Positions 49,406 through 64,000 are shown, counted from the first letter of the stretch. The stretch is 64,000 nucleotides of DNA from an uncultured Planctomycetota bacterium (GCA_963845755.1 CAWJTV010000039.1:64001-128000), one strand, 5' to 3'. Numbers and translations are program-made. The notes: generated by a model not told the origin, from the letters alone.

Positions 49406-49543
49406 TTCCGGGATGCCGAGTCGGCACCCGGGAAAGGCCGAACACGCAATGGCCCCAGCGGGGCACGTCTGTCGGTGATGAGACGGCCACTCTCCCCGCC
49501 CGGGTGCCGATTGCAGACCCTGCCGGGCGGGCCTTTTCTTCTT
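49406..49543 (+). promoter_or_regulatory. Candidate attenuator/riboswitch leader with intrinsic terminator before dabA
   Basis: Stem CCCGCCCGG/CCGGGCGGG then CCTTTTCTTCTT; 12-bp alternative pairing 49421-49432 with 49499-49510. Confidence 0.5.
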
Positions 49544-49561
49544 ACGAGCCGATCGATCCCC

Positions 49562-52500
49562 ATGAAAACGTCCGTAGCTCCCGAAAGCGCCCGCCCGCGT
49601 GTGGAGAAACCGAGTCCGGACGTCGAGCAGTTGGCCGCGATGATCGAACGCACGGCCCACCTCCTGCCCGCGCAGGGGCCGATCACCGTCTTCATCCACC
49701 ACAACACCCTGCACGCCTTCGAAGACCTGCCGTTCCATGAGGCGCTCAAGGAAGCCGCCCGGGTCTTCGGCTGCCAGATGTACCTGAGCGAGGACCGCTA
49801 TCGCGAGGAGCTGCGGCGGGGCCGGATCCGATTCGCGGAATTGCAGGAGGTGCTGGAGCAAGACCTGGGGGAAGGTGCGCGACGGCCGATCCCCGGCTTC
49901 GGGACGCGGCTCGAGCTGCGGCTGGCGATGCTCCAGTATCCGCTGCGGATCGGCCCGACGGAGGAACTGCTCTGGCACGTGGCCGAGGCCGACGCCCTGC
50001 GTCGGGTGCGGCCGGAGGTCTCTTCGGCCATCCGCGCACGCCTGATCGCCGAGACGCGTCGATGGGTGATGCGCGACCTGCGGGGCGGCAACGAACGCAC
50101 TCACGGCTCGCCCCATGCTCCGGCCCGGCAGCCGGTCCCCACCAGCCTGGCCAAGCTGCTCGTCCGGTTCGGCGAGTCGCGGATCGAGAACTGGAGCGAC
50201 GACGATTGGGAATCGTTCACGCTCCAGGCGTTGTGGCGGATCTGCCGCGACGGGGTCCGGGACCTGCCTCCCTACACGCCGGCGCCCGCGTCCGCCGTGA
50301 GGCATCGGGACCTGCTGCTGGAAGCCACCGGCGAGGATGCCGACGCCCTGGTCCATGCCGTGCTCATCCGGTTCTGCACGGCATTCCTCGACCAGGGTCT
50401 GGCGGCCTGGCCGCTGCCGCATCGGTCGGAGGGCTTCTATCGCGCGTTCTGCAAGCTGTACCGGCAGCCCGGTGGGCCGCCCGACCGCTGGCTGCGCGGG
50501 CCTCGCCGTGGAGCTGAAGCGGCTGGAAGAGCAGGGGATCAGCCCCCTGGAGTCGATCCGCGAGTCCCTGGAGGCCCTGGGCGTGGACCGGCAGGAGTGG
50601 GAGCCGTTCCTCCGCGCCACGTTGCTGGCGCTCCGCGGCTGGGGCGGCATGCTCGAGCAGATCGAGGTGCGTGGCGACCGGGTCGTGCAGCCGGTGCCGC
50701 GGGGAAGCCTGGTCGAATTCCTGGCGATCCGGCTGCTGCTCGACCGGTTCGCCCTGGCCGACACGGCGCGCGAGGCCCTGGGGTTCACCGGCCCCCTCTC
50801 CATGCTGCGGGGCCTTGCGTCGTACTGGCCACCCAGCGTCGAGCAGCGGCGCGTTCGTCGTCTTCCAACTGGCCCAGGTCCACGGGCTCTCGCCCGACGT
50901 GCTCCATCGGCTGAGCCGGTCCGAATGGGCGGCGGTGCTCGAGGAGATCGAAGCCTTCACCGCGATGGAGCGTCGACGGGTCTTCCACCTGGCCTACGAA
51001 CGGCGATTCTACACGCAGACCCTCGACGCCATCTCCCTCCACGCCCGGAAGCCAATCGACACGCCGGCGCAGCCGCGGTTCCAGGCGATCTTCTGCCTCG
51101 ACGAGCGCGAGGAGTCGATCCGTCGACACATCGAGGAGCTGGCCCCGGACGCCGAGACGCTCAGCACGGCGGGCTTCTTCTCGATCGCCATGTACTTCCG
51201 CGGGGTGGCCGATGCGCACTTCGTCCCGCTCTGCCCGGCGGTCATGCGACCGCGGCACTGGGTCGTCGAGCGGGTGATCGACCGCCTCGAGCTCGATAGC
51301 CGCCGCCGCGCCCGGACGCGACGCGTGCTGGGGATCGCCTCCCACCGCTTCCACACCGGCAGCCGCTCCTTGACCGTCGGTGCGGTGCTCGCGGCCGCGG
51401 TCGGCGTCCTGGCCTCGATCCCGCTGGTCGCCCGCACCCTCTTCCCGCGGCTGACCTCGCAGATCCGCCGGCGGTTCGGCACCTTCGTCATCCTCCCCAC
51501 CGCTGACCCGCTTGCAGTTGGAGCGGGCCGACCCGACCTCCGGACCCGAGGACGGGCATCTGGGCTTCACGCTCGACGAGATGACCGGCCATCGCGGAGA
51601 CGGTGCTCCGGGAGCTCGGCCTGACCTCGCGGTTCTCCCGGCTCGTACTGCTCCACGGCCACGGCTCGACCAGCATGAACAATCCCCACGAGTCGGCGCA
51701 CGACTGCGGCGCCTGCGGCGGGGCGCGGGGCGGGCCCAACGCCCGTGCCCTGGCCCAGATCCTCAACGACCCGCGCGTCCGGGAGCGGTTGTCCGACCGC
51801 GGGCTCGCGATCCCGAGGGAGACGATCTTCGTCGGCGGCATGCACAACACCAGCAGCGAGACAGTGACCTTCTACGACCTGGATCTGATCCCCGAGTCGC
51901 ACCGCCGGGAGTTCGAATCGGCCCGGGCGATCATCGAGGAGGCCTGCGACCGGAACGCCCACGAGCGTTGCCGGCGGTTCCGATCCGCCCCGCTGACGCT
52001 CTCCTTCCAGGGCGCCCGCCAGCACGTGGAGGGACGCGCCGAGGACCTGGCCCAGGTGCGGCCCGAATGGGGGCACGCCACAAACGCCATCACGATCGTC
52101 GGCCGGCGGGATTGGACCCGCGGCCTGTTCCTGGATCGCCGCGCGTTCCTGACCTCGTACGACCCCACCCAGGACGACGCCGAGAGCTCGATCCTGACCC
52201 GCATCCTCTCGGCCGTCTTCCCCGTCTGCGCCGGGATCAACCTCGAATACTACTTCTCGTACGTCGACAACTACGGCTGGGGATGCGGCACCAAGCTCCC
52301 CCATAACATCGCCTCGCTGCTGGGGGTCATGGACGGCTACATGAGCGACCTGCGGACCGGCCTGCCCTGGCAGATGGTCGAGATCCACGAGCCGGTGCGA
52401 TCGCTCTTCATCATCGAGACGACGGCCGAGTCGATGCTGCGCATCATCGAGCGGAACGAGGGGATCCGCCGCCTCTGCTCCCACGGCTGGATCATCCTCA

Positions 52501-52695
52501 CGCTGATCCATCCGGAAACGAAAGCGGTCAGCCTGTACGAGGACGGTCGGTTCCAGACCTACCAGCCTCAGGCCACGGTGCTGCCCCGGGCCGCGTCCTC
52601 CGTTCGACTGGTATCGCGGCTGGCGGGATCACCTGGAGTTCGCGGAGATCGAGCCCGAAGGCCCCTCGGATCGGGGAGGATGCGATGTCTCATGA
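49562..52695 (+). CDS. dabA: DabA/DUF2309 (UPF0753) inorganic carbon transporter subunit (frameshifts)
   Basis: [24 protein letters not shown] and DCGACGG Zn ligands; [35 protein letters not shown]. Confidence 0.92.
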
Positions 52696-54083
52696 GCCGT
52701 CCTGGCTGACGTTCCTCGGCGTCGTCGTCGTCGCGGCGCCGCTTGCTCCTGACGCTGTCTGCTCGGCGTCTCCTCGCTGCTGGATCGGAAACTCGCCGAG
52801 GACACGACGACGCGAGCGGTCCAGGTCGCCGTGATCTCCGGGCTGACTCGCCGCGGTCGCGGTCCTGATCGCGATGCTCGCGCTGGGGACGCGGCACGTG
52901 ACGATCAGCCTGGGGAATTGGGTGGCGATCCCCCGCCACTACCACTTCTCGATCAAGCTCCTCTTCGACCGGCTGTCGGTCCCGATGGCCATCCTGTCGT
53001 TCATCCTGGCGGGCACGATCGGCGCATTCGCCAGCAAGTACCTCCATCGCGAACGGGGCTTCAATCGCTTCTTCGTGCTCTACGCGCTATTCCTGCTGGG
53101 CATGGTGGTCGCCTCGCTGGCCGGTACGATCGAGACTCTGTTCACCGGCTGGGAGCTGGTCGGGCTCTCCTCGGCACTGCTGGTCGCCTATTTCCAGGAA
53201 CGTCCGGCCCCGGCGCGGAACGGCCTGTGGGTCTGGACGAACTACCGGATCTCGGACGCGGCGCTGCTGCTGGCCTGCGGTGGCCATGCACCACCTGCGC
53301 GGCGAGGGCGACTTCGACGCGCTGCTCGGTGCGGCACCCTGGCCCGAGGCCCACGCGAACCTGCCCGCGTACCAGGCCTTCGTGGTCGGCATGCTGCTCC
53401 TGGTCGCGGCGGCCGGTAAATCCGCCTTGATCCCCTTCTCGGGCTGGTTGCCGCGTGCCATGGAAGGCCCGACACCCTCCAGTGCCGTCTTCTACGGAGC
53501 CCTCTCCGTCCACCTGGGGACGTTCTTGCTGCTCCGGATCAGCCCTCTCCTCGAACGTCTCCGCGTGGCTCTCGGCCATGGTCGTGGCCATCGGGCTGAC
53601 CACCGCCGATGTTCGCCTACCTGGCGGGGAGCGTCCAGGCGGACATCAAGTCGGCGCTGTCGTATGCGTCGCTCACCCAGGTCGGGATCATCACCGTCGA
53701 GGTTGGCCTGGGCTTTCGCTACGTGGCGCTGATCCACCTGCTGGGCCACGCCTGCCTGCGTGCGCTGCAATTCCTGCGGGCACCGACGCTGCTCCACGAT
53801 TATCACACGCTGCGAGAACGCCATCGGCGACCACTTGCCGGCGGCCGGGGTCGCCTGGGTCCGCCTGCCCGCGCAGCGCGCCGGCAACTGGCTCTATCGC
53901 CTGGCCATCCAGCAGGGCTATCTTGATGCGTTCTTGTCGGATTATCTCGTCGGGCCGTTCGTACGGCTCTTTCGCTGGTTCGACAGGCTTGAGCGGCGAT
54001 GGACCGACTTCCTCGCGGGAGAGGCGTCGCGCGAGTCGGACCAGGTCAAGCCGCACTTTGGAACGATCGAAGAATTCGCATGA
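52685..54083 (+). CDS. dabB: NuoL/ND5-like membrane subunit (DabB-type; frameshifts)
   Basis: [60 protein letters not shown]; overlaps the dabA stop. Confidence 0.88.
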
Positions 54084-55559
54084 ATCCGCTGTCACTCCCC
54101 TGGCTCGAGATGTCGATCGCCGTCACCCTGCTCGGCTCCCTCTGGGTCAGCCGGCTGCGGGAGCCGATCCGCGCCTACCATCGGGGCCTGGCATTCACGG
54201 GGACCGCGTTCGTCTGCACGCTCCTGGCGTGGCTGGGCTTCTACCTGCGGATTCCGGTCGACGCCAGCCTGGCGCTGAGCCCACAGTACCGTCTCCTCAG
54301 CCGGCAGATCTTCGCGCTGGACGAGCTGAACGCCCCCCTGGTGCCGGTCGTGGCCCTGATCCACTTCCTGACGGCGCTGGCCACGGCGCGGGTGAAGATG
54401 CGCCGATACTCGATCGCCTGGTCGATGGCCGCCGAGTCGATCCGCCTGGCCATGTTCTCGGCCACCGAGCCCTGGGTTCTGATCGCCTTGCTGGCCGCAT
54501 CGACCATACCGCCCTACATCGAGCTGGCGAGCCGAGCGCCGCCCGACACGCATCTACGTAATCCACATGATGCTCTTCGTCGGGTTGCTGGTGCTGGGGT
54601 GGTCGGCCGTCGAGCTTCGGGGACGAGACGCGATCCCGACGGCCCTTGCGAGCATTCTCCTGCTGCTGGCGACCTTGGTGCGGTGCGGGACCGTCCCGGC
54701 CCACTGCTGGGTTACCGACTGGTTCGAGCACGCCACGTTCGGCAATGCGATTCTGTTCGTGTGTCCCCTCGGCGGTGTCTACGCCGCCGTCCGGCTCGTG
54801 CTCCCGATCGCACCGGACTGGGTCCTCCACGGTATCTCGATCGCCTCGCTGATCACGGCCGTCTACGCCGCGGGGATGGCCGTGGTCCAGAACGAAGTGA
54901 GGCGGTTCTACGCCTTCCTGTTCTTGAGTCACGCCTCGCTCGTGCTCGTCGGGTTGGAGCTGGACACCGTCATGTCACTGACGGCCTCGTTGTGCCTGTG
55001 GTTCTCGGTCATCCTGTCGCTGACCGGCTTCGGCCTGACGCTCCGGGCACTGGAATCCCGGTTCGGACGGCTCTCCCTCACCAGCTTCCACGGCCTCTAC
55101 GAGCACACGCCCGCGCTGGCCGTCTGTTTCCTCCTGACGGGACTGGCGAGCGTTGGATTTCCGGGCACGCTCGGCTTCATCTCGACCGATCTGCTGGTCG
55201 ACAGCGCCGTGGAGGTCAACCCGACCCTCGGGATCGTGGTGGTCGCGGCGGCGGCCCTCAACGGGATCGCCGTGGTGCGGGCGTATCTCCACCTGTTCAC
55301 CGGAGCCCGCCATGTTTCGACGATCTGGCTGGGGATCGGCACGCGCGAGCGGATCGCGGTCCTGACACTGACGGCGATGATGCTTCTCGGCGGGCTGTTC
55401 CCTCAGCCCGGCGTGACGACCCGCCAGCGCGCGGCGGAAGCGATCCTCGAGGATCGGCGGTCCCGCCAGCGGGACCGGCGGGTGGAAGAGAGAATCTCCG
55501 CCCCGCCTACGGTTGCCGAGAAGATCCCGCCCCCGGCCAATGCGAGACCTTCGTCGTGA
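54080..55559 (+). CDS. NuoM/ND4-like proton-translocating membrane subunit (frameshift near 54540)
   Basis: ATGA overlap with the previous stop; VRCGTVPAHCW, LASVGFPGTLGF; many TMs. Confidence 0.85.
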
Positions 55560-55712
55560 ATGCTGGATCGGCCGATCGACGCGACGCCGGGATTGCGGGA
55601 TCGTGACGGATTTCCGGGGAGCCGGCACCCCTTCGGGGTGCGACGAGATTGGTGCGCCCAAGCCCCCAGGGTTTCGCCCTCACCAGAATCCGCGACGGTC
55701 AGAGTGTCCCCG

Positions 55713-56381
55713 TCAACGATGCGACGTCACGCCGACCTGCCGGCACATCGCGAGCAAGGGGCAGGTCGAGCATCTGGGCCGGATGCCGGTGCAGATGGAC
55801 TTGCCGAACGGGACGAGCCGCTCGTTGATCTCGACCCAGTAGCGTTCCGGCAACCTGGCGGCGAGCGCGGCCATGGTCTGCTTGGCGGTCGAGGTGTTGA
55901 CGTAACCCCAGCGATTGGCGACCCGGTGAACATGAATATCGACGGCGATCGCGGCCCGGCCGAATCCGACGGCCAACGTCAGGGCGGCGATCTTCGGGCC
56001 GACCCCGCGGAACCCGATCAGTCCCTCGATCGTGTCGGGCACCAGGCCCCCATGCTCCGCGACGATCCGCCTCGACAGGGCGATCAGGTCGCGCGCCTTG
56101 GCCACGGGGAACGATGTTCCCCGGAGCAGCCGGACGAGCCGCGCCTCGTCGATCGCGGCCATCGACGCGGGCGTCCGGGCCGTGGCAAACAGGCGGAGAC
56201 AGACCGCGATCGTCGTCTCGTCCCGCGTCCGGGCCGAGATCAGGCTGCCGACGAGCTGCTCGAACGGCGAGGAATAGCCCCGGTCGCGCAGCTCGAACAT
56301 GGCCGCCTTGGGCACGCCCGCCACGGCCTGGCGAAGCCGTCGGAAAACTTCGTCGATGTCGAACGGTTCCTTCGCCCCCAT
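55713..56381 (-). CDS. nth: Endonuclease III
   Basis: PFEQLVGSLISARTRD, HhH GVGPKIA, VDIHVHRV, C-x6-C-x2-C-x5-C Fe-S motif. Confidence 0.95.
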   Translation of the reverse strand: MGAKEPFDIDEVFRRLRQAVAGVPKAAMFELRDRGYSSPFEQLVGSLISARTRDETTIAVCLRLFATARTPASMAAIDEARLVRLLRGTSFPVAKARDLIALSRRIVAEHGGLVPDTIEGLIGFRGVGPKIAALTLAVGFGRAAIAVDIHVHRVANRWGYVNTSTAKQTMAALAARLPERYWVEINERLVPFGKSICTGIRPRCSTCPLLAMCRQVGVTSHR

Positions 56382-56432
56382 GCCCCGATCACCGGCAAAC
56401 GGCGGGCCGAATCCGTCCAGGGACCCACGGAC

Positions 56433-57380
56433 TCAAGGATTGTCGTCGCCGACCACCAGCGAGGGGAGTATCGGCGGGCCATTCTCGCCGGACGTCTCGC
56501 GATCCGGAGACTCGGGTTTGAGGATCTCCGCCATCTGGCGGGCCAGGGCCTGGAACTCGCGTGGGTTGGCGGGTGCCTGCGCCAGCCGGACATTCGAATC
56601 CGTCGCCGGTGCGAACGGATAGTTGGGCATGCTGACCTGGTGGTTGAAGAGGTTATAGACCCCATACACCACGTCGATCTCCCAGCGCCCGGCCATCTCG
56701 ATCTCCTGGCGGAGGACGAATGCCGCCTGGGCGGCATTGAGGCAGACCGCCGTCTCGATGAGGGCGTCGCGGAAATAGGGCGACTGCCGGCCGTCCCGTC
56801 CCCAGACTTCATCCAGGCCGTTGGCCGCCTCGCGGACCGAGACGAAGATCCGCTGGAGGATCGACCGCAGGGCCGGCGACGTCGATCTCGACCAGAATTT
56901 CAGCGGCCGGAGATACGCGTCAACCGCCCCGGTCACGGCGCCGCAGCCGCTGTGCCCCAGTACGACGATGACCTTCACGCTCTCGCTGAGCGCCTCGACG
57001 GCGAAGTCGATGCTCCCCAGACAGACGTCCCCCAGGACGTTCCCGGCGACGCGGATGACGAACAGGTCGTTGAAGCCCTGGCCGAAGATCATCTCCGTCG
57101 GCACGCGGGCATCGGAGCAACCGATCACGACCGCGAACGGGGCCTGCTTCGGCATCCCGCCCTGCTTCCGCACCATCCCGACCTCGAGCCCATTGCACTG
57201 GACAACGTACCCCGACTCCTCGCCCACCGTCACCTCATGGTTCTGGCAGCTCGCCATCCATCGCGCGAACATCCGGTTGCCATCTTCCAGGTTCTTCCGA
57301 GCCAGGTCCGCGTCGGGCGGGGAGGGCTTGGTGCTCGGGTTCTTGGGATCGAATCGATAAACATAATTAATAGTATTCAT
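56433..57380 (-). CDS. Beta-class carbonic anhydrase
   Basis: LEDGNRMF, GCSDARVP, FVIRVAGN, GHSGCGAV. Confidence 0.92.
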   Translation of the reverse strand: MNTINYVYRFDPKNPSTKPSPPDADLARKNLEDGNRMFARWMASCQNHEVTVGEESGYVVQCNGLEVGMVRKQGGMPKQAPFAVVIGCSDARVPTEMIFGQGFNDLFVIRVAGNVLGDVCLGSIDFAVEALSESVKVIVVLGHSGCGAVTGAVDAYLRPLKFWSRSTSPALRSILQRIFVSVREAANGLDEVWGRDGRQSPYFRDALIETAVCLNAAQAAFVLRQEIEMAGRWEIDVVYGVYNLFNHQVSMPNYPFAPATDSNVRLAQAPANPREFQALARQMAEILKPESPDRETSGENGPPILPSLVVGDDNP

Positions 57381-57549
57381 TGCAAAGTCCATTGTCGATA
57401 CGGATGTGATCTGCGAGCTGCTGGCAATCGACGCGGGGTGCACTCGGGGACGATCAATCTCACCGGATCGATCATAGCGTATGATAGACCGCCATGGGCC
57501 GCCACGCAAGTGGCGGCATGCAACCCGAACCTGGTGGGAGATCCCGGTG

Positions 57550-57972
57550 ATGAAGTCGCACACCGAGTATCTGACGTTCGACGTGCCGGCCCGGATGGAC
57601 TTCCTCAACATCACGCGGCAGGTGGAGGAAATCGTCCGCAAGAGCGGCGTGCAGGAGGGCCTGGTCCTGTGCAATGCCATGCACATCACAGCCAGCGTCT
57701 TCATCAATGACGACGAGCCGGGTCTGCACGAAGATTACAAGAAATGGCTGGAGGAGCTCGCACCCTTCGACCCGTCGCCGCAGCGTTACAAGCACAACCG
57801 CACCGGCGAGGATAACGCCGACGCCCACCACAAGCGCCAGATCATGGGCCGCGAGGTGGTGGTGGCCGTGACCCGGGGAAAGCTCGACTTCGGGCCATGG
57901 GAACAGATCTTCTACGGCGAATTCGACGGCCGCCGGCCCAAGCGAGTGCTCATCAAGGTGATCGGGGAATAG
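57550..57972 (+). CDS. yjbQ: YjbQ/UPF0047 family protein
   Basis: [37 protein letters not shown]. Confidence 0.93.
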
Positions 57973-58244
57973 TCGCCACGGCATCGTGGGATCTTCCCGA
58001 TGAGGGTCCAGGCTCGATGACTCCACGCAAGAGAAACGCCCTGAACGGAATCGCTCAGCCTGGGGGAGGGGATCCCCCATTTCCAGAAAGGCTTTCACGT
58101 TCAAATGAATGAGCTGATTCCGTTTTGGAGATCTTGCGATTCCTCTTGCGCGGAGTGATCGAGCCTGCCCGCCCACATTCCCGGTCCGCCCGGCGGGTCG
58201 GCCCGCCCGCCGCAGGCTGGGCGACGGGCACGCCTCCGCTCGGA

Positions 58245-58454
58245 TCAGGTCCGGTCGAAACTCGAGGTCTCGAAGTGCTGGACCTGGCGCTCGGCTTCGT
58301 CGCGAGCGATCCCGTAGCTCTTCTGGATCGCGCCGACGAGCTGATCGCGCTGGCCGGCGATGACATCGAGCTCATCATCGGTCAGCTTGCCCCAGGCTTC
58401 CTTGACCTTGCCTTTGAATTGCTTCCAATCGCCCTTCATCGTGTCCCAATTCAT
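58245..58454 (-). CDS. CsbD family stress protein
   Basis: MNWDTMKGDWKQFKGKVKEAWGKLTDD..GAIQKSYG. Confidence 0.93.
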   Translation of the reverse strand: MNWDTMKGDWKQFKGKVKEAWGKLTDDELDVIAGQRDQLVGAIQKSYGIARDEAERQVQHFETSSFDRT

Positions 58455-58559
58455 GGGTTGCTCCTCATTGGAAAACGATCCGGAAACCCCCCGCGCCAGA
58501 CACTCCTGGCGGGCGAGGTTCGGCCTCTTGAGTCGATGGTCCATCGTCCCCGGGCCGCA

Positions 58560-58730
58560 TCAGGCGATCGGGGCCCGGGTGCGCCCGAGAACCAGCGAGA
58601 CCACGAACAGGATCAGGAACAGGAGGAACAGGATCTTCGCGATCGAAGCCGCCGTCCCGGCGATGACTCCAAAACCCAAGACCGCGGCGATCAACGCGAT
58701 CACGAGGAATGTCACTGCCCAGCTCAACAT
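58560..58730 (-). CDS. DUF1328 (YtjA-like) small membrane protein; not in the ORF track
   Basis: [55 protein letters not shown]. Confidence 0.92.
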
Positions 58731-58820
58731 CGGATTGCTCCTCTCTCATGTTGTCCGTCTCAACGACGGTGGAAATCACATGTCTTTTCAATCATCCGCA
58801 ACACACTTTTGTTTGGTAGT

Positions 58821-58836
58821 AGCAAACCGTGTGCCG
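58821..58836 (-). promoter_or_regulatory. sigma54 promoter for DUF1328-csbD
   Basis: CGGCACACGGTTTGCT (GG-N10-GC). Confidence 0.75.
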
Positions 58837-58847
58837 CGGTCTGGCCG

Positions 58848-59046
58848 TCACCAGGGTTTCAACTTCCAGCCCAGGATGAAGCCGATCCCGAACGCCCATG
58901 CCGCGAAGGACAAGGGGTTCGACCGCGCGTAGTCCTCGGTCGAACTCGGCCACGGATCGGACCGTCGACTCGACCCAGTTCTCCACGCGGCCCGGGGCCG
59001 CCCGGAGTGCGTCTTCCGCGGAATGCACGTCGTATACTCGCGACAT
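58848..59046 (-). CDS. Small DUF883/ElaB-like tail-anchored protein (frameshift)
   Basis: GAGGAG RBS; EDYARSNPLSFAAWAFGIGFILGWKLKPW. Confidence 0.7.
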
Positions 59047-59146
59047 GTCCTTGGTCTCCTCAAAGTGATGGGTTCTGCCGTCGCATCGAGCTCGGCCGTC
59101 TGAGGAAGCTGTTGTCAGTCCTCGCGGTCCCACATCTCTCTTGTAG

Positions 59147-59162
59147 TGCAACTGCGATGCCA
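59147..59162 (-). promoter_or_regulatory. sigma54 promoter
   Basis: TGGCATCGCAGTTGCA. Confidence 0.75.
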
Positions 59163-59197
59163 GAGTTCGGAGCCCATCTCGAAGCGGACCGGAAGAG

Positions 59198-59213
59198 TGG
59201 CATGGAATCTGCA
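59198..59213 (+). promoter_or_regulatory. sigma54 promoter for the CBS gene
   Basis: TGGCATGGAATCTGCA. Confidence 0.7.
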
Positions 59214-59304
59214 AATGCAGATGAGAGTGAGATCGGCGACGATCCGTGTTGGGATCGATCGAGGGTCCGATCGTGCCTGAAGCAATGGAGAGGTCGTGAC
59301 AATC

Positions 59305-59748
59305 ATGGAACATGACGAATTGAAATCACTGTCCAATTTGACGGCCGCCGATGTGATGACGGCAGCCCCGCGGACGTGTTCGCGGTTCAGCACGGTCCTC
59401 GAGGCCGTGATGATCTTCCGCGACGCGGATTGCGGCGCCGTGCCGGTGCTGGAAGAGGGGAAACCGGTCGGCATCGTGACCGACCGCGACGTCGCGATCG
59501 CGCTCCCCGACACGCCCGACCTGTTAAATCGCCCGATCGGCGAGATCATGTTGACGGGCCTCGTGTCGGTCGCCCCCGGAGATAGCCTGAGCCATGTCCA
59601 CCAGGTGCTCGCCTCCCAGTCGATTCGTCGCGTCCTCGTTGTTGACGCGACCGAGCGACTCGTGGGCATCATCGGTTGGGCCGATATCGCGCCGGTCTTG
59701 TCGGAGCGCCTGATGGGCCGACTCGTTACTGAAGTGGTGGAGTCTTAG
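59305..59748 (+). CDS. CBS domain pair protein
   Basis: ADVMT, CGAVPV, VGIVTDRD, IRRVLVVD..LVGII. Confidence 0.92.
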   Translation: MEHDELKSLSNLTAADVMTAAPRTCSRFSTVLEAVMIFRDADCGAVPVLEEGKPVGIVTDRDVAIALPDTPDLLNRPIGEIMLTGLVSVAPGDSLSHVHQVLASQSIRRVLVVDATERLVGIIGWADIAPVLSERLMGRLVTEVVES

Positions 59749-59778
59749 TCGCTTCGCTCCGGTGGACAGTAGGTAGTC

Positions 59779-59924
59779 GAGTCGTCCTCCGTAGGATCCC
59801 TGCGCCGTGCGCGCCTCTGGGGATTCCGAATTCCGGATTCCCGGATCCTTCCCCTTCGGGAATCCGGAATCGCGAATCGGGAATCCCGATGGGGTTGCGG
59901 CCGAAGGACGCGTTAGGCAGTAGG
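59779..59924. repeat. About 150-bp direct repeat, copy A (internal heptamer palindrome)
   Basis: 36 nt identical to 60675-60710; shared tail GAATCCCGATGGGGTTGCGGCC..CGCGTTAG. Confidence 0.85.
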
Positions 59925-59987
59925 TAGTAAACGCAAAACCGCGTTGTTGTTTTACTGCCTACTGCCTACTACATACTGCCCACGCGA

Positions 59988-60494
59988 CTAACGCGCCGGA
60001 CGGCCGCTGTGAAGCAGGACGGTGCGGACCCAGTTCATGTTGCGGGCGAGTTCCTCGCGGCTGATGGGGAATCCCACGGCCGCGCGTCGCAACTGGCTGG
60101 CGGCAATGGCGATGCCGGCCCCCCCGATGAAGAGGGTCACGAGGGCAACGCTCAGGAAGGCGGCGCCGCGGTTCATCCCCAGCCCGGAGGCCAGTAACTC
60201 GGCGATTCCGATCAGGATCACGGGAAGGCTGGCCAGGGCCAGGGCGGTGCCGGCCAGGATCACCGCGCCGGTAACTTTGACGGCATCCGCGTTCTGCCGG
60301 ATCTCGATCGCGGTCAGCCGCGCCTGTAGCTCGCAGAGGGACAGCAGATTGTCGCCGAACTCGGCGACTCCGCTGATCACCTGACCCGGTCCGCCTTCAT
60401 CCTTGGGGCCCGTGGCATTGCCGGGTTCGGCGACCACGGCACCCCGTCGGCCCGCCAGCGAGCCATTGATTCTTACCGTCGCTTGATTAGCCAT
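59988..60494 (-). CDS. YqjE-like / phage holin family membrane protein
   Basis: LSLCELQARL, two TMs, SREELARNMNW. Confidence 0.8.
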   Translation of the reverse strand: MANQATVRINGSLAGRRGAVVAEPGNATGPKDEGGPGQVISGVAEFGDNLLSLCELQARLTAIEIRQNADAVKVTGAVILAGTALALASLPVILIGIAELLASGLGMNRGAAFLSVALVTLFIGGAGIAIAASQLRRAAVGFPISREELARNMNWVRTVLLHSGRPAR

Positions 60495-60673
60495 CCCAGA
60501 ATGACTCCCGCTGCCAGGGCGGCCCCCAGGGCCAGGGCCGGTCGGTTGGTGATGAGGTCCTTCACGAATTCCCCGGTCCCGGCCAGGTAATCGTTCGCCC
60601 GGGCGAACATCTCGCCGGCGCCCTCCCGTTCCCGCGATCCGGACGATGCGTGATCTCGTGCGATGGATATCAT
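60473..60673 (-). CDS. Small DUF883-like protein
   Basis: GGAGG RBS; NRPALALGAALAAGVILGWLIKRR. Confidence 0.8.
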   Translation of the reverse strand: MISIARDHASSGSREREGAGEMFARANDYLAGTGEFVKDLITNRPALALGAALAAGVILGWLIKRR

Positions 60674-60674
60674 A

Positions 60675-60830
60675 GAGTCGTCCTCCGTAGGATCCCTGCG
60701 CCGTGCGCGCATCTGGGGGATACCCGATTCGTGATTCCCCATTCGCCACTCCCCATTCCGGATTCCGAATCCTTCTTCATTGGGAATCGCGAATCCCGAT
60801 GGGGTTGCGGCCCACGGCCGCGTTAGTAGG
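60675..60830. repeat. About 150-bp direct repeat, copy B
   Basis: Matches copy A at both ends; contains the RBS of the 60673 gene. Confidence 0.85.
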
Positions 60831-61365
60831 TCTGTGCCTTCAACCAACCGTCGTGTCCCACGAAGCGGCGGCGGGTCGGGCGGAGACCGGTCATCAACGA
60901 ACGTCGCGGGGCCCCCGAGGCGTCCGGGTGCGCGGCGGGTCCGAGTCGGTCGCCACCCTCGGCCTGGGGGGCCAGCCACTGTTCCAGGTAGTGGGCGGCA
61001 TAATTCTGCGCGGCACGGATCGCCAGCGGAGCCAGGAGGCCCAGGACCGTGCCCGTCAGACTCCACGACTTCTCCCGCGGCGCACTGGTCAGGTTCACGT
61101 GCATGGGCGCCATTGCCTTGGCGCCGGAGGTCGGAACGCCCATCGCCACCACGGCGGGTGCCTCCGTCCGCCGCTTGGGGACGATCAGGTAGCCGGTCGC
61201 GCCGGCCGTCGCCAGGCTCAGCCACGGATGGCTTCGCACCAGGCTCCGCCAGTCGGTCAACGATTGAGCCCCCTTGACCGCTTCCCGGACATCCTTATGC
61301 ATGTCATGACGAACCAAGGCCATCCGCTGCTGGATTTCGCGGATCTCCTCCGTCGGGCTCGACAT
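60823..61365 (-). CDS. DUF3618-like membrane-anchored protein
   Basis: EIQQRMALVRHD..DWRSLVRSHPWLSLATAGATGYLIVP. Confidence 0.7.
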   Translation of the reverse strand: MSSPTEEIREIQQRMALVRHDMHKDVREAVKGAQSLTDWRSLVRSHPWLSLATAGATGYLIVPKRRTEAPAVVAMGVPTSGAKAMAPMHVNLTSAPREKSWSLTGTVLGLLAPLAIRAAQNYAAHYLEQWLAPQAEGGDRLGPAAHPDASGAPRRSLMTGLRPTRRRFVGHDGWLKAQTY

Positions 61366-61473
61366 CGCCGTAGCCATCGCCACCATCCTCTCGGAGTGTC
61401 TCACGTCGCGCGCCGGCATCCCTCATCGTTCGCCTCGCAGAGTCGCGCTTGCGTTCTCTCTCGGCTCCCAGCG

Positions 61474-61489
61474 AGCAAAAACTGTGCCA
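61474..61489 (-). promoter_or_regulatory. sigma54 promoter for the leftward operon
   Basis: TGGCACAGTTTTTGCT. Confidence 0.8.
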
Positions 61490-61725
61490 AAACGCGGGCG
61501 CGGCCGGTCGACGGCCTCACGTCACCTGCGTCGTCCCCGATCCTCATGAAAGGTTTTAAGAATTCTCAAATTTCTGTGAGAAATCTGCGACCGATTCTTG
61601 AGTAGTCCGACGCACATGAGTCCTTGCGGCCCGTCGTTCCCCCTTTTACCAGGGCGCCGGTTGTCGCGGACGCACGAAGAACTTTCGCATCGACCGCCCC
61701 CAAACCGGCTCAAACCCCTCCGGCT

Positions 61726-61741
61726 TGGCACACCCCTTGCA
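61726..61741 (+). promoter_or_regulatory. sigma54 promoter for the rightward operon
   Basis: TGGCACACCCCTTGCA. Confidence 0.8.
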
Positions 61742-61828
61742 TCAGTTTCGACCTTGATCATGATGGCCAGCCCCGGATCTCATGTGAGGTCGCTGGCCGT
61801 CCGGTTCCCAGAATGAGGGGAAAGTTTC

Positions 61829-62023
61829 ATGCGCAAGCTGATCAGTACGATGATGTTGGGTGTCCTCGTCGTGGGATGTGGGTTCGCGATCCCCGGCTGC
61901 TCGGAGGAGACTGCAACGAAGACACAGACCACGACGACCACTCCCAACGGCAAGACGGTGGAGACCCAGACCAACTCGATCAAGCAATCGGGTGACCAGC
62001 CGCCGCCGCCCAAGACACCTTGA
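61829..62023 (+). CDS. Small Thr-rich lipoprotein
   Basis: Signal peptide ending IPGC; TQTTTTTP. Confidence 0.75.
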   Translation: MRKLISTMMLGVLVVGCGFAIPGCSEETATKTQTTTTTPNGKTVETQTNSIKQSGDQPPPPKTP

Positions 62024-62100
62024 TCGGCCGAGACGTCACAAGGATTCACTTCGGGGTGGATCGGATTCCTTTTCCATCAGAGATCAGTGAGGTTGACACC

Positions 62101-62520
62101 ATGGTTAATGCGCAAGTGCTGCAAGGGCAGTGGAACCAGATTCGCGGTGAGCTGAAGAAGAAGTGGGGCCAGTTGACCGAGGACGACCTGCGGTTCACCA
62201 ACGGCAACATCGACCAGTTGATTGGCCGGATCCAGCACAAGACCGGCGAGGCCCGCGATGCGATCGAGAAGTTCCTGGACGAGGCGACGGCCCAGGGTGC
62301 CTCGATGATGACGCAGGCGACCGAGCAGGCGGGCAAGTATGCCCAGTACGCCTCCGAGCAGGTGCGCGAGGGGTACAACCGGCTCTCCGACCAGTTCAAC
62401 CGCGGCTACGACGTCTCGCAAGACATGATCCGCGAGAACCCCGGTCGTTCGATCGCCCTGGCCTTCGGCGCCGGCATCCTGCTGGGCGTCGTCGTCGGCG
62501 TGGCCCTGCGTTCGCGCTGA
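62101..62520 (+). CDS. CsbD domain fused to a DUF883-like C-terminal anchor
   Basis: GQWNQIRGELKKKWGQLTEDD; RENPGRSIALAFGAGILLG. Confidence 0.9.
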   Translation: MVNAQVLQGQWNQIRGELKKKWGQLTEDDLRFTNGNIDQLIGRIQHKTGEARDAIEKFLDEATAQGASMMTQATEQAGKYAQYASEQVREGYNRLSDQFNRGYDVSQDMIRENPGRSIALAFGAGILLGVVVGVALRSR

Positions 62521-62550
62521 TCATTTCAGCATGAGAAAGGCTTCTCGAGT

Positions 62551-62632
62551 GAAGGCGGAAGGCTGAAGGCGGAAGGCTGAGTCAGCACCGGTCCGGTCTT
62601 GATTCAGCCTTCAGCCCTCAGCCTTCGGCCTT
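62551..62632. repeat. Inverted heptamer tandem repeat
   Basis: (GAAGGCK)4 followed by TCAGCCT TCAGCCC TCAGCCT TCGGCCT. Confidence 0.85.
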
Positions 62633-62653
62633 TTAGAGTGAGGTACTCCGTCA

Positions 62654-64000
62654 GTGACCAAGCCCTCCGTTGGACCGACCTGGCAACGTGCGCTCATTAC
62701 CTTGACCGGGACCGTCATCTGCGTGGTCGCGATCGCGGCCTTGTACTGGGCGCAGTCGGTGTTCATCCCGGTGGCGCTAGCCGCCTTCCTGACCTTCCTG
62801 CTCAGCCCCCTCGTGGGCTGGTTCCGCCAACGCGGGGTCCGGCGGACCCCCGCCGTGATCATGGCCGTCCTGCTGGCGACACTCGCCCTGGGCTCGATCG
62901 GCTGGCTCGTCACTTCTCAGATCACCAGCTTGATCCAGGAGTTGCCCCGGTACACCCAGACCGTGAAGGAGAAGGTCCGGACCTTCAAGAAGGTCACGGA
63001 GAACTCGGGTCAACTCAAGAAGATGGTGACGGAGATCAACCAGGAGCTCGGCCAGACGACGGATCGACCGGCCAAGGACGATGCGGAAGAGAGCCCCGGC
63101 GGAGAGACGGCCGACTCCGGCCTGTCCACCAGACGGCCGACGGCCGTGATCCTCGAGCCGCAGAGCCCGGTCTGGCTGTCGCGCCTGACCTCGTTCTTGA
63201 GCCCGCTCCTGGAATCGCTCGGCGAGCTGGCGCTGGCCATCATCCTGGTCATCTTCATGCTGCTGAAGCGGGAGGAACTCCGCAATCGCATCATCCGACT
63301 GGCGGGACACGGGCAGATCGTCGTCGCCACCAAGTTCGTGGACGAGGCGGCGCAGCGGGTCAGCCGGTTCCTCCTCATCCAGGCGATCGTCAATGGGACG
63401 TTCGGCCTGATCTTCGGGATCGGCCTGCTCCTGATCGGGGTCAAGTATGCCTTGCTTTGGGGCTTCCTGGCGGCGATGCTCCGCTACCTCCCTTTCATCG
63501 GGCCCTATCTGGCCGTCACGTTCCCGATTTCGCTGAGCCTGGCCACCATCCCCGGCTGGGGAGCGACGTTGATGGTGATCGGCCTGTTCCTGACGGTGGA
63601 GCTGATCACGGCGAACTTCGTCGAGCCCCGGCTCTACGGCCAGAGCATGGGAGTCTCCGAGATCGCCTTGCTGGTCTCGGCGGCCTTTTGGGCATTCCTC
63701 TGGGGACCGATCGGGCTGGTCCTCTCGAGCCCACTGACGGTCTGCCTCGTCGTACTGGGCCGCTACAGCCCCCGGTTGGAGTTCATCTCGGTCCTCCTGG
63801 GCGATGAGCCGGCCCTCGATCTGAGCATCAGCTTCTACCAGCGCCTCCTGGCCCGGGACCAGGACGAAGCGGAGGACCTGGTCCTGGAGCAGGTCCAGGC
63901 ATCCAAATCTGCGGAGCCCATCTACGATGAGATGCTGCTGCCGGCCTTGATCGCCATCAAGCGGAACCGCATCCGCGATGACATCACCGAGGCGGACGCG
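62654..64000 (+). CDS. AI-2E family transporter (partial, runs off the window)
   Basis: GTG 62654 frame: ALYWAQSVFIPVALAAFLTFLLSP, LRYLPFIG, EPRLYGQSMGVS, WGPIGLVLSSPLT. Confidence 0.92.
   Translation, partial: MTKPSVGPTWQRALITLTGTVICVVAIAALYWAQSVFIPVALAAFLTFLLSPLVGWFRQRGVRRTPAVIMAVLLATLALGSIGWLVTSQITSLIQELPRYTQTVKEKVRTFKKVTENSGQLKKMVTEINQELGQTTDRPAKDDAEESPGGETADSGLSTRRPTAVILEPQSPVWLSRLTSFLSPLLESLGELALAIILVIFMLLKREELRNRIIRLAGHGQIVVATKFVDEAAQRVSRFLLIQAIVNGTFGLIFGIGLLLIGVKYALLWGFLAAMLRYLPFIGPYLAVTFPISLSLATIPGWGATLMVIGLFLTVELITANFVEPRLYGQSMGVSEIALLVSAAFWAFLWGPIGLVLSSPLTVCLVVLGRYSPRLEFISVLLGDEPALDLSISFYQRLLARDQDEAEDLVLEQVQASKSAEPIYDEMLLPALIAIKRNRIRDDITEADA

Follow-up and report, generated by a model that had tools for sequence, protein, structure and literature searches.

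The island and its five -24/-12 motifs

Positions 58245 to 64000 of a 64,000-nucleotide stretch of DNA from an uncultured Planctomycetota bacterium (the window, i.e. 64001-128000 of contig C39 (G000:C39) in a 14.3-Mb, 88% complete assembly, G000) hold an island of stress-type genes headed by five motifs that resemble the -24/-12 promoters of sigma-54 (RpoN). An initial annotation had read the island as a general stress regulon wired through RpoN and an enhancer-binding protein. All five 16-mers that it listed are present, exact in coordinate and strand, as intergenic, sense-oriented GG-N10-GC motifs that end 88-101 nt before a start codon (91 nt for DUF1328, 92 for the CBS gene, 97 for a 184-aa gene, 88 for a 64-aa gene, and 101 for a DUF883-like gene with its ATG at 59046). 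They share the sigma-54 consensus TGGCAC-N5-TTGC (PMC4676750). The sites are single-oriented and not palindromic, and motifs 2 and 3 stand back to back with 38 nt from first G to first G.

The pattern YGGCAY-N6-TGCW picks out exactly these five motifs in the 64-kb window, while 100 shuffles gave a mean of 1.0 and a maximum of 4 matches and none reached five. A weight matrix built from 50 intergenic consensus sites of the genome outside the motif region gives the five scores of 14.0-19.8. The 3 kb that contain them form the densest stretch among 121 intergenic sites in the genome, with five sites where the runner-up elsewhere has three. Neither a sigma-70 consensus promoter in 58000-64000 nor a bipartite pattern of the EcfG or SigB type in the motif region was found.

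Motif 1 heads DUF1328-CsbD, motif 2 the DUF883-like gene and motif 3 the CBS gene. Behind motif 4 the 184-aa gene is followed by a short DUF883 gene and then YqjE, and the motif 5 unit consists of a lipoprotein-like gene with CsbD-DUF883 and perhaps also AI-2E. Pfam upholds the gene labels of the initial annotation, but CsbD, the YqjE-like gene and AI-2E, which it had placed directly behind motifs, are second or later in their units; AI-2E, which a 40-bp hairpin repeat precedes, lacks a site for itself and may belong to the motif 5 unit. The DUF883-like label of the gene at 58848 rests on a DUF883_C match below the cut-off and on homologues at the same place in relatives. Near 58945 the frame of this gene changes, the GAGGAG ribosome site and start lying in one frame and the conserved tail in another, probably through an assembly indel. 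Atlas clusters of the 184-aa protein are mostly from Planctomycetota, with a weak DUF3618 lead (0.89 on 13% of members); 'YqjK-like' is a label given to it by position. A signal peptide and cysteine predict that the 64-aa protein is exported and lipoprotein-like.

Table 1. Features of the island, in window coordinates; predicted start sites are derived from the -12 convention
Feature	Position	Strand	Unit headed, or support for the gene	Matrix score	Predicted start site
CsbD (YjbJ type), 69 aa	58245..58454	-	Pfam PF05532 E 2.2e-20		
DUF1328 (YtjA type) small membrane protein, 56 aa	58560..58730	-	Pfam PF07043 E 2.7e-15		
-24/-12 motif 1	58821..58836	-	DUF1328-CsbD	17.6	~58810
DUF883-like small tail-anchored protein	58848..59046	-	weak PF19029; homologues at same place in relatives		
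-24/-12 motif 2	59147..59162	-	DUF883-like gene	17.2	~59136
-24/-12 motif 3	59198..59213	+	CBS gene	14.0	~59224
CBS-pair protein, 147 aa	59305..59748	+	PF00571 E 1.4e-23; start from coding model		
YqjE-type membrane protein (Phage_holin_3_6), 168 aa	59988..60494	-	PF07332 E 4e-12		
Short DUF883-type protein, overlaps YqjE-type start	60473..60673	-	no Pfam match; same-position gene in named relative annotated DUF883 family		
184-aa planctomycete protein, first in motif 4 unit	60823..61377	-	no Pfam or NCBIfam match		
-24/-12 motif 4	61474..61489	-	184-aa / DUF883 / YqjE unit	19.8	~61463
Inverted repeat TTCTCA-N8-TGAGAA between motifs 4 and 5	61563..61582	.	similar in 2/8 relatives; not a general enhancer		
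-24/-12 motif 5	61726..61741	+	lipoprotein-like / CsbD-DUF883 (/ AI-2E) unit	17.6	~61752
64-aa exported, lipoprotein-like protein (predicted)	61829..62023	+	coding model; homologues at same place in relatives		
CsbD domain fused to DUF883-type tail, 139 aa	62101..62520	+	PF05532 E 2e-15, weak PF19029		
AI-2E family transporter, long C-terminal part, 683 aa	62654..64000	+	ends 705 nt beyond window		

Palindromic interspersed repeats of two kinds, with about 240 and 21 matches in the genome, also occur here (59779-59916 and 60675-60826; 62552-62632), one copy within the motif 4 unit and another ahead of AI-2E. An inverted repeat of 28 bp with a 103-nt interior (58009-58167) separates a UPF0047 gene from CsbD. 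Next to the island, positions 49475-57972 hold DabA (split over frames) and its partners resembling NADH dehydrogenase 5, followed by an HhH-GPD glycosylase, a beta carbonic anhydrase and UPF0047, likely an inorganic carbon uptake cluster.

The motif in the genome and in relatives

Among 11262 genes called with a simple coding model, 73 have an upstream site scoring at least 14, compared with 9, 11, 12 and 9 when the spacer is shifted. Intergenic sites at this threshold number 115 with the 10-base spacer and 29, 32, 30 and 42 with shifted spacers, although the 50 training sites inflate the former count, of which 65 are left without them. With a strict pattern, 43 matches lay upstream of genes, where six other spacers gave 0-11; naive counts of this kind were dropped, as 16 of the 43 represent one end of a single insertion element, leaving 27. 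This element carries its -24/-12-like 16-mer 47 nt before the transposase start and occurs at 20 places in G000 (e.g. C17:11520-11535); the 16-mer may be due to chance or may be a sigma-54-driven transposase promoter.

Elsewhere in the genome the motif heads units for YciF, Mn catalase, YflT, DUF3072, DUF3175, DUF2171, DUF1003, EcsC and a ferritin-like protein, and further ones for a pyruvate-oxidase-like enzyme, a short-chain reductase, KaiC together with a kinase, Hsp20, rpoN, and a second CBS and AI-2E. CsrA, pilin-like and DnaK-like genes, read from sequence, are on the same list. The KaiC-like ATPase is followed by a hybrid kinase (L173:6453-9705, on G000:C36), an arrangement that recurs within the island of another genome, G044.

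In line with the initial annotation's premise, one intact rpoN is present, a single gene at 401 bits against the TIGR02395 cut-off of 277 and with the RpoN box. A -24/-12 site with a score of 17.5 stands 99 nt ahead of the start of this gene (G000:C33:387996), which suggests autoregulation. With positive controls scoring throughout, no match exceeded the cut-off for RpoS in five genomes, for SigB/F/G in 21 or for NepR in 21, EcfG itself not having been searched among the genes for extracytoplasmic function (ECF) sigma factors. Matches to the sigma-70 family number at least 150 and include three short RpoD-like paralogues. A cascade from RpoN to a group-2 sigma factor was considered and rejected, there being no -24/-12 site before six non-ECF or RpoD-like sigma genes.

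Retention of the motif in orthologous promoters, expected if the initial annotation was right, was borne out by a matrix scan of relatives, the tallies being descriptive, not probabilities. From 50 DUF1328-positive genomes of the family, the best 30 DUF1328 loci were taken, and 28 were left after the window's own locus and a truncated one had been dropped. A site lies upstream within 300 nt in 17/28 (controls 0-1) and within 700 nt in 26/28, compared with 1, 1 and 4 in shifted or reversed controls. Across the class, CsbD has a site in 13/29 and 17/29 (controls 0-4). When two divergent promoter regions were aligned over nine genomes, motif bases made up 10/10 and 14/16 of the invariant columns, while the spacers varied and the DNA between the divergent promoters ranged from a few to about 260 nt. 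Outside the class the DUF1328 sites within 300 nt fade to 3/25 in other classes of the phylum and 4/74 in other phyla (controls 0-2). Within 700 nt the other phyla give 10/74, six of them Pseudomonas; all six Pseudomonas loci examined (L035, L036, L040, L044, L065, L079) have a site scoring 11.7-14.2 at 138-433 nt upstream, and an activator gene is near three of them.

YciF, a family absent from the window, passes the matrix in 17/29 loci (controls 0, 1 and 4) and matches a looser pattern, chosen after seeing the data, in 25/29 (other spacers 0-1). GGAAY replaces GGCAY in 17/29 YciF sites and the distance from GG to GC stays at exactly 10. This variant, GGAAY-N4-TTTGC (L183-L212, 17/29 relatives), also stands before a kinase operon on two plasmids. 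The GGAAY form recalls the -35 box of EcfG and, together with the 20-copy insertion element bearing a similar 16-mer, would suit an explanation in which a different protein (an ECF sigma factor or a repressor) binds the motif, or in which sigma-54 acts mainly as a roadblock, the -24/-12 likeness being incidental. That explanation is very improbable in the face of the invariant 10-base distance in the GGAAY variant (25/29 vs 0-1), the lack of any EcfG- or SigB-type pattern in the region, the single orientation of the sites and a sigma-54 activator that travels with them. We conclude that the five motifs are, judged by sequence and comparison, very probably true sigma-54 promoters.

A candidate activator of the island

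The initial annotation had proposed looking for an activator gene downstream of the window, but contig C39 contains no PF00158 match. Its idea of an enhancer-binding protein as the switch fared better in relatives, where a dedicated activator family travels with the island. We call the member of this family in G000 Y1 (G000:C16:66348-67817). It is a receiver-AAA+-helix-turn-helix (HTH) protein that retains the receiver Asp, Walker A and B motifs, arginine finger and HTH and has the contact loop GAFTSA; a serine at this loop position is active in NorR (PMC2941729). Y1 and a second subfamily, X, fall below the cut-off of every named NCBIfam equivalog (AtoC 512 of 714, NtrC 438 of 559).

Within the family, 16/35 Y1 orthologues (at least 55% identity) lie within 25 kb of DUF1328, compared with 0/78 paralogues (46-51%). 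In G053, G060 and G034, Y1 sits between the DUF883-like and CBS genes, which is the place of motifs 2 and 3 in the window. Genes of the window type were present at 23/23 relatives' Y1 loci examined, including six picked though not near DUF1328 (11 further loci are outside this count). In a second family, in which CsbD was not found, 12/17 genomes have Y1, and of 12 loci fetched for Y1 alone, 11 of them from this family, nine hold AI-2E, DUF1328 or DUF2171, with 45 sites versus 8 and 3 in controls. The density of sites amounts to 107 in 447 kb around Y1 versus 2 in 98 kb around core activators. By presence, too, Y1 tracks DUF1328, which occurs in 34/35 Y1 genomes, while 10/11 DUF1328-less genomes are without Y1. 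The AI-2E gene that lies divergent from Y1 in G039 has its closest match, at 64%, in the AI-2E of the window.

Among plasmids, the best three matches to Y1 (61-64%) come from Paludisphaera, strain SH-PL62 and Aquisphaera, so that the lineage, which Atlas clusters place in Planctomycetota, probably belongs to the Isosphaeraceae. On two named plasmids kinases, Y1, AI-2E, CBS, DUF883 and holin form one block with three and five sites at gene starts. Orthologues exist in the cultured strains Paludisphaera borealis PX4 (BSF38_RS29400) and SH-PL62 (VT85_RS25445). Y1 is preceded by a sigma-70-like promoter (TTGT.. N17 TATAGT type) in 7/9 closest orthologues and by a variant in an eighth. PAS hybrids predominate among the kinases adjoining it, and CHASE3 is present in those of the closest clade; in one subclade a divergent histidine-kinase-like gene of weak score adjoins the activator (L322:4789-5901, L323:3368-4303, L331:1587-2711). 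In G000 the divergent kinase (L143:4374-5198, on C16) consists of HisKA and HATPase only, whereas in close relatives this place is occupied by AI-2E, a CHASE3 kinase, a receiver and a PAS hybrid kinase, which suggests a deletion or rearrangement beside Y1 in this genome.

In 11/15 loci from several families, subfamily X has CsbD or DUF1328 no more than about 10 kb away, most of these loci having been chosen for that nearness. The X copy of this genome (G000:C9:368346) was considered as regulator of the window and rejected: in a midpoint-rooted FastTree phylogeny of 93 trimmed proteins, the island-linked X of other families forms a subclade by itself (support 0.90), outside which this copy falls, so Y1 (support 0.88 for Y1 alone) is preferred. 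The tree leaves out short or frameshifted proteins, e.g. G000 C28:310791, C26:16704 and C36:286164 and the Y1 of G035 and G045. These comparisons make Y1 a reasonably good candidate for the main activator of the five promoters.

The proposed switch, its rivals and known systems

The explanation that best accounts for the whole, and which we consider likely, is that conserved sigma-54 promoters drive the five stress-type units and are probably switched by phosphorylated Y1. Sigma-54 polymerase needs an AAA+ activator to open a promoter, and at the island it would wait as a closed complex. Y1, itself made from its conserved sigma-70-like promoter, would be phosphorylated on the receiver domain by a cytoplasmic PAS-type hybrid kinase or a relay, and would then assemble, hydrolyse ATP and open the promoters, allowing a fast response without a new sigma factor. 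The island belongs to a larger group of sites, some tens in number (YciF, Mn catalase, YflT, DUF3072, ferritin-like, pyruvate-oxidase-like, KaiC-kinase, rpoN), and other families of Planctomycetia carry subfamily X in islands of this kind. The motif-headed set is likely to be induced by several stresses.

A number of observations weigh against this explanation. The tallies in relatives ignore kinship and so overstate the conservation. Outside the window only 5/23 Pfam-chosen stress-family genes have a site in their unit, albeit 10-fold above the 2.5% of all genes (Fisher p 2e-4; one further Usp without a gene call is left out): DUF1328 1/3, CsbD 0/2, BON 1/5, YciF 1/1, Usp 0/4, AI-2E 1/2 and Hsp20 1/6. 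A homologue inventory of stress genes, partly circular, gave 30/52. Paralogous copies of CsbD, DUF1328 and AI-2E lack the -24/-12 motif and stand behind sigma-70-like promoters and a leader. In Rhodopirellula, rpoN is unchanged in heat and lower in salt, while ECF factors rise under all stresses (PMC2754498). As sigma-54 polymerase depends on its activator, the regulon would follow the state of the activator and need not show rpoN induction. The genome has about 20 sigma-54 activators; Y1 lies on another contig (C16) than the island, beside a kinase without a sensor domain, and neither the CHASE3 kinase nor the receiver present in close relatives was found in this genome. Most Y1 proteins of the family have G[AS]FTSA rather than GAFTGA, although many orthologues have G[AS][FY]TGA. 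No Y1 match was obtained in 16/50 DUF1328-positive family genomes, including G020, which is of the same genus and has island sites, though many of these assemblies are incomplete. Finally, no enhancer common to the promoters emerged from blastn, a dyad count, Gibbs sampling, a TTCTCA-N8-TGAGAA scan or a TGCGCA count.

In a rival scheme without a single master, the sigma-54 promoters would be genuine and several of the activators, each with local kinases, would run separate islands, Y1 controlling only its own module (AI-2E, CBS, YqjE unit). TTCTCA-N8-TGAGAA, a local candidate between motifs 4 and 5, lies near a site in one of its seven genome matches. TGCGCA occurs in 19/115 cases in Y1 islands, against 8.9 expected, and at none of the window's five promoters. 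In 5/5 modules (L362:10440-10550, L363, L357, L358, L359) the promoter behind the activator gene has an unchanged TGCGCA-N-GGC upstream of it, a candidate local enhancer; the conservation of this element only upstream of the module beside Y1 speaks for separate control, as do the lack of a common enhancer, the occurrence of unrelated subfamilies X and Y1 in islands, neighbouring kinases that differ between genomes, and the 16 genomes without Y1. Against separate control stand the tracking of DUF1328 by Y1 and back-to-back promoter pairs only 9-57 nt apart, which leave no room for private upstream enhancers. A fixed spacing of such pairs was rejected, since the 38-41 nt of three G000 pairs becomes 41-57 and wider in relatives. 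As several pairs are too close to have an enhancer between them, the activator may use distant, downstream or degenerate sites, or none. We regard control without a single master as a serious possibility, though one we would not put at even chances. Returning to Y1 as the probable main activator, its orthologues in cultured strains make control of the planctomycete general stress response directly testable.

The paralogues point to a second wiring. A leader of about 165 nt that ends in a terminator-like hairpin occurs in seven copies, each behind sigma-70-like sequence (G000:C23:93575-107700, C20:432770-439790; L170, L176), and four of the site-less Pfam-chosen genes belong to the paralogous island on C23 or are the CsbD on C20, downstream of this leader. 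MpsC/DUF2294 and CsrA genes lie near leader copies. The leader has no Rfam match, an Rfam search of three loci giving tRNAs only, and no shared leader was found at the -24/-12 promoters. Since the same gene families stand under motif and under leader, the lineage has at least two wirings, and sigma-54 is one arm of its stress control and not the sole one. The initial annotation's general stress response wired through RpoN is thus upheld as far as motifs that behave as sigma-54 promoters, an rpoN gene and many more stress-type genes with the motif are concerned, and too broad as an exclusive claim, given the few sites at Usp, BON and Hsp20 genes.

The same data allow the regulon to be seen as a developmental or stationary-phase programme (life-cycle switch, attachment, envelope remodelling), with stress proper left to ECF or short group-2 sigma-70 factors and the leader RNA. 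Small membrane or exported proteins are numerous among the targets, the site list includes genes for CsrA and for pilin-like and DnaK-like proteins, sigma-70-family genes abound and include the short RpoD-like paralogues, Usp genes are without sites, and both the leader paralogues and the ECF induction in Rhodopirellula (PMC2754498) fit such a division. We nevertheless judge this unlikely, considering that YciF, Mn catalase, YflT, CsbD, DUF1328, ferritin-like and YhdF-like reductase genes make up a typical SigB/RpoS/EcfG set and that no sigma-70 consensus promoter accompanies the island. Moreover, Mn catalase and Dps of Rhodopirellula are induced by heat, cold and salt (PMC2754498).

If stress control by sigma-54 and Y1 is correct, it shows that stress genes conserved as a set can pass as a whole to a sigma factor that works by a different mechanism, and several unnamed small proteins gain a function by association. 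With no RpoS, SigB or NepR found in the planctomycete genomes searched, the result names promoters, predicted starts and a candidate activator. Sigma-54 regulons of Planctomycetia were reportedly predicted by Studholme and Dixon in 2004. Matrix-predicted sigma-54 control in this class was described by Carrera-Reyna et al. 2025 (PMC12316311), with enriched sets of Usp, MscS, chaperones, proteases, CBS, permeases, lipoproteins and CsrA, of which the Usp enrichment does not match the 0/4 of this genome. The main text of that paper, as available, does not contain CsbD, YjbJ, UPF0391 or 'general stress', and five matching COG numbers are absent from 11 supplements; it names activators ZraR and links none to a stress island. 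RpoN control was also suggested for one stress gene of Rhodopirellula, via a proposed promoter at thioredoxin (PMC2754498). The initial annotation's suggestion that sigma-54 stress wiring is new for planctomycetes was therefore partly foreshadowed in print; no report of a sigma-54 regulon of the CsbD/DUF1328 type was found in the literature searched, subscription papers being outside its scope, and the new part is mainly the assignment of the activator.

Regulons under sigma-54 provide the nearest models in build. Like the NtrC-type systems (NtrB/NtrC, AtoS/AtoC, ZraS/ZraR), the island and Y1 have the same activator architecture and kinases beside the activator gene; unlike them, the targets are stress-type small proteins, no shared enhancer was found and the promoters are often back to back at 9-57 nt. 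In Desulfovibrio vulgaris the sigma-54 response regulator DVU3305, with the loop GAFSGA, is labelled 'general stress response' (PMC4641369), but the stress regulons of DVU3305 and PspF differ from the island in comprising two local operons and other genes, with no CsbD/DUF1328/YciF-type set. Borrelia Rrp2-RpoN-RpoS reportedly also places sigma-54 and an activator above a broad adaptive response; there sigma-54 makes RpoS, whereas here no site was found ahead of the short group-2 sigma genes, and sigma-54 would therefore act directly. Ralstonia rpoN2 was considered as a precedent and set aside, the text available having nothing on stress genes.

In its targets the island shares typical families with RpoS of enterics, SigB of Bacillota and EcfG-NepR-PhyR of Alphaproteobacteria. 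YciF, Mn catalase, YflT and DUF883/YqjE are among general-stress targets, and CHASE3 occurs in RsbK, which the PAS and CHASE3 hybrid kinases beside Y1 resemble as inputs. The initial annotation's placing of the CsbD and DUF1328 families under RpoS, SigB or EcfG holds for RpoS in Salmonella, where YjbJ/CsbD and YtjA/DUF1328 are so controlled (PMC5437024). The difference from RpoS, SigB and EcfG is that the island promoters are of the -24/-12 type and that control would lie in activator phosphorylation, not in sigma level or anti-sigma switching. It is tempting, if still tentative, to see in Planctomycetia a fourth general stress switch beside these three, in which sigma-54 polymerase parked at dozens of promoters, many of them back to back, would be released at once by one phosphorylated activator with no need of a fixed enhancer, two unrelated activator subfamilies having been recruited to the same gene island in different families and the module also moving on plasmids. 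By its sequence, the island resembles a general stress regulon in its targets and a sigma-54 activator regulon in its build, and does not belong to the RpoS, SigB or EcfG systems.

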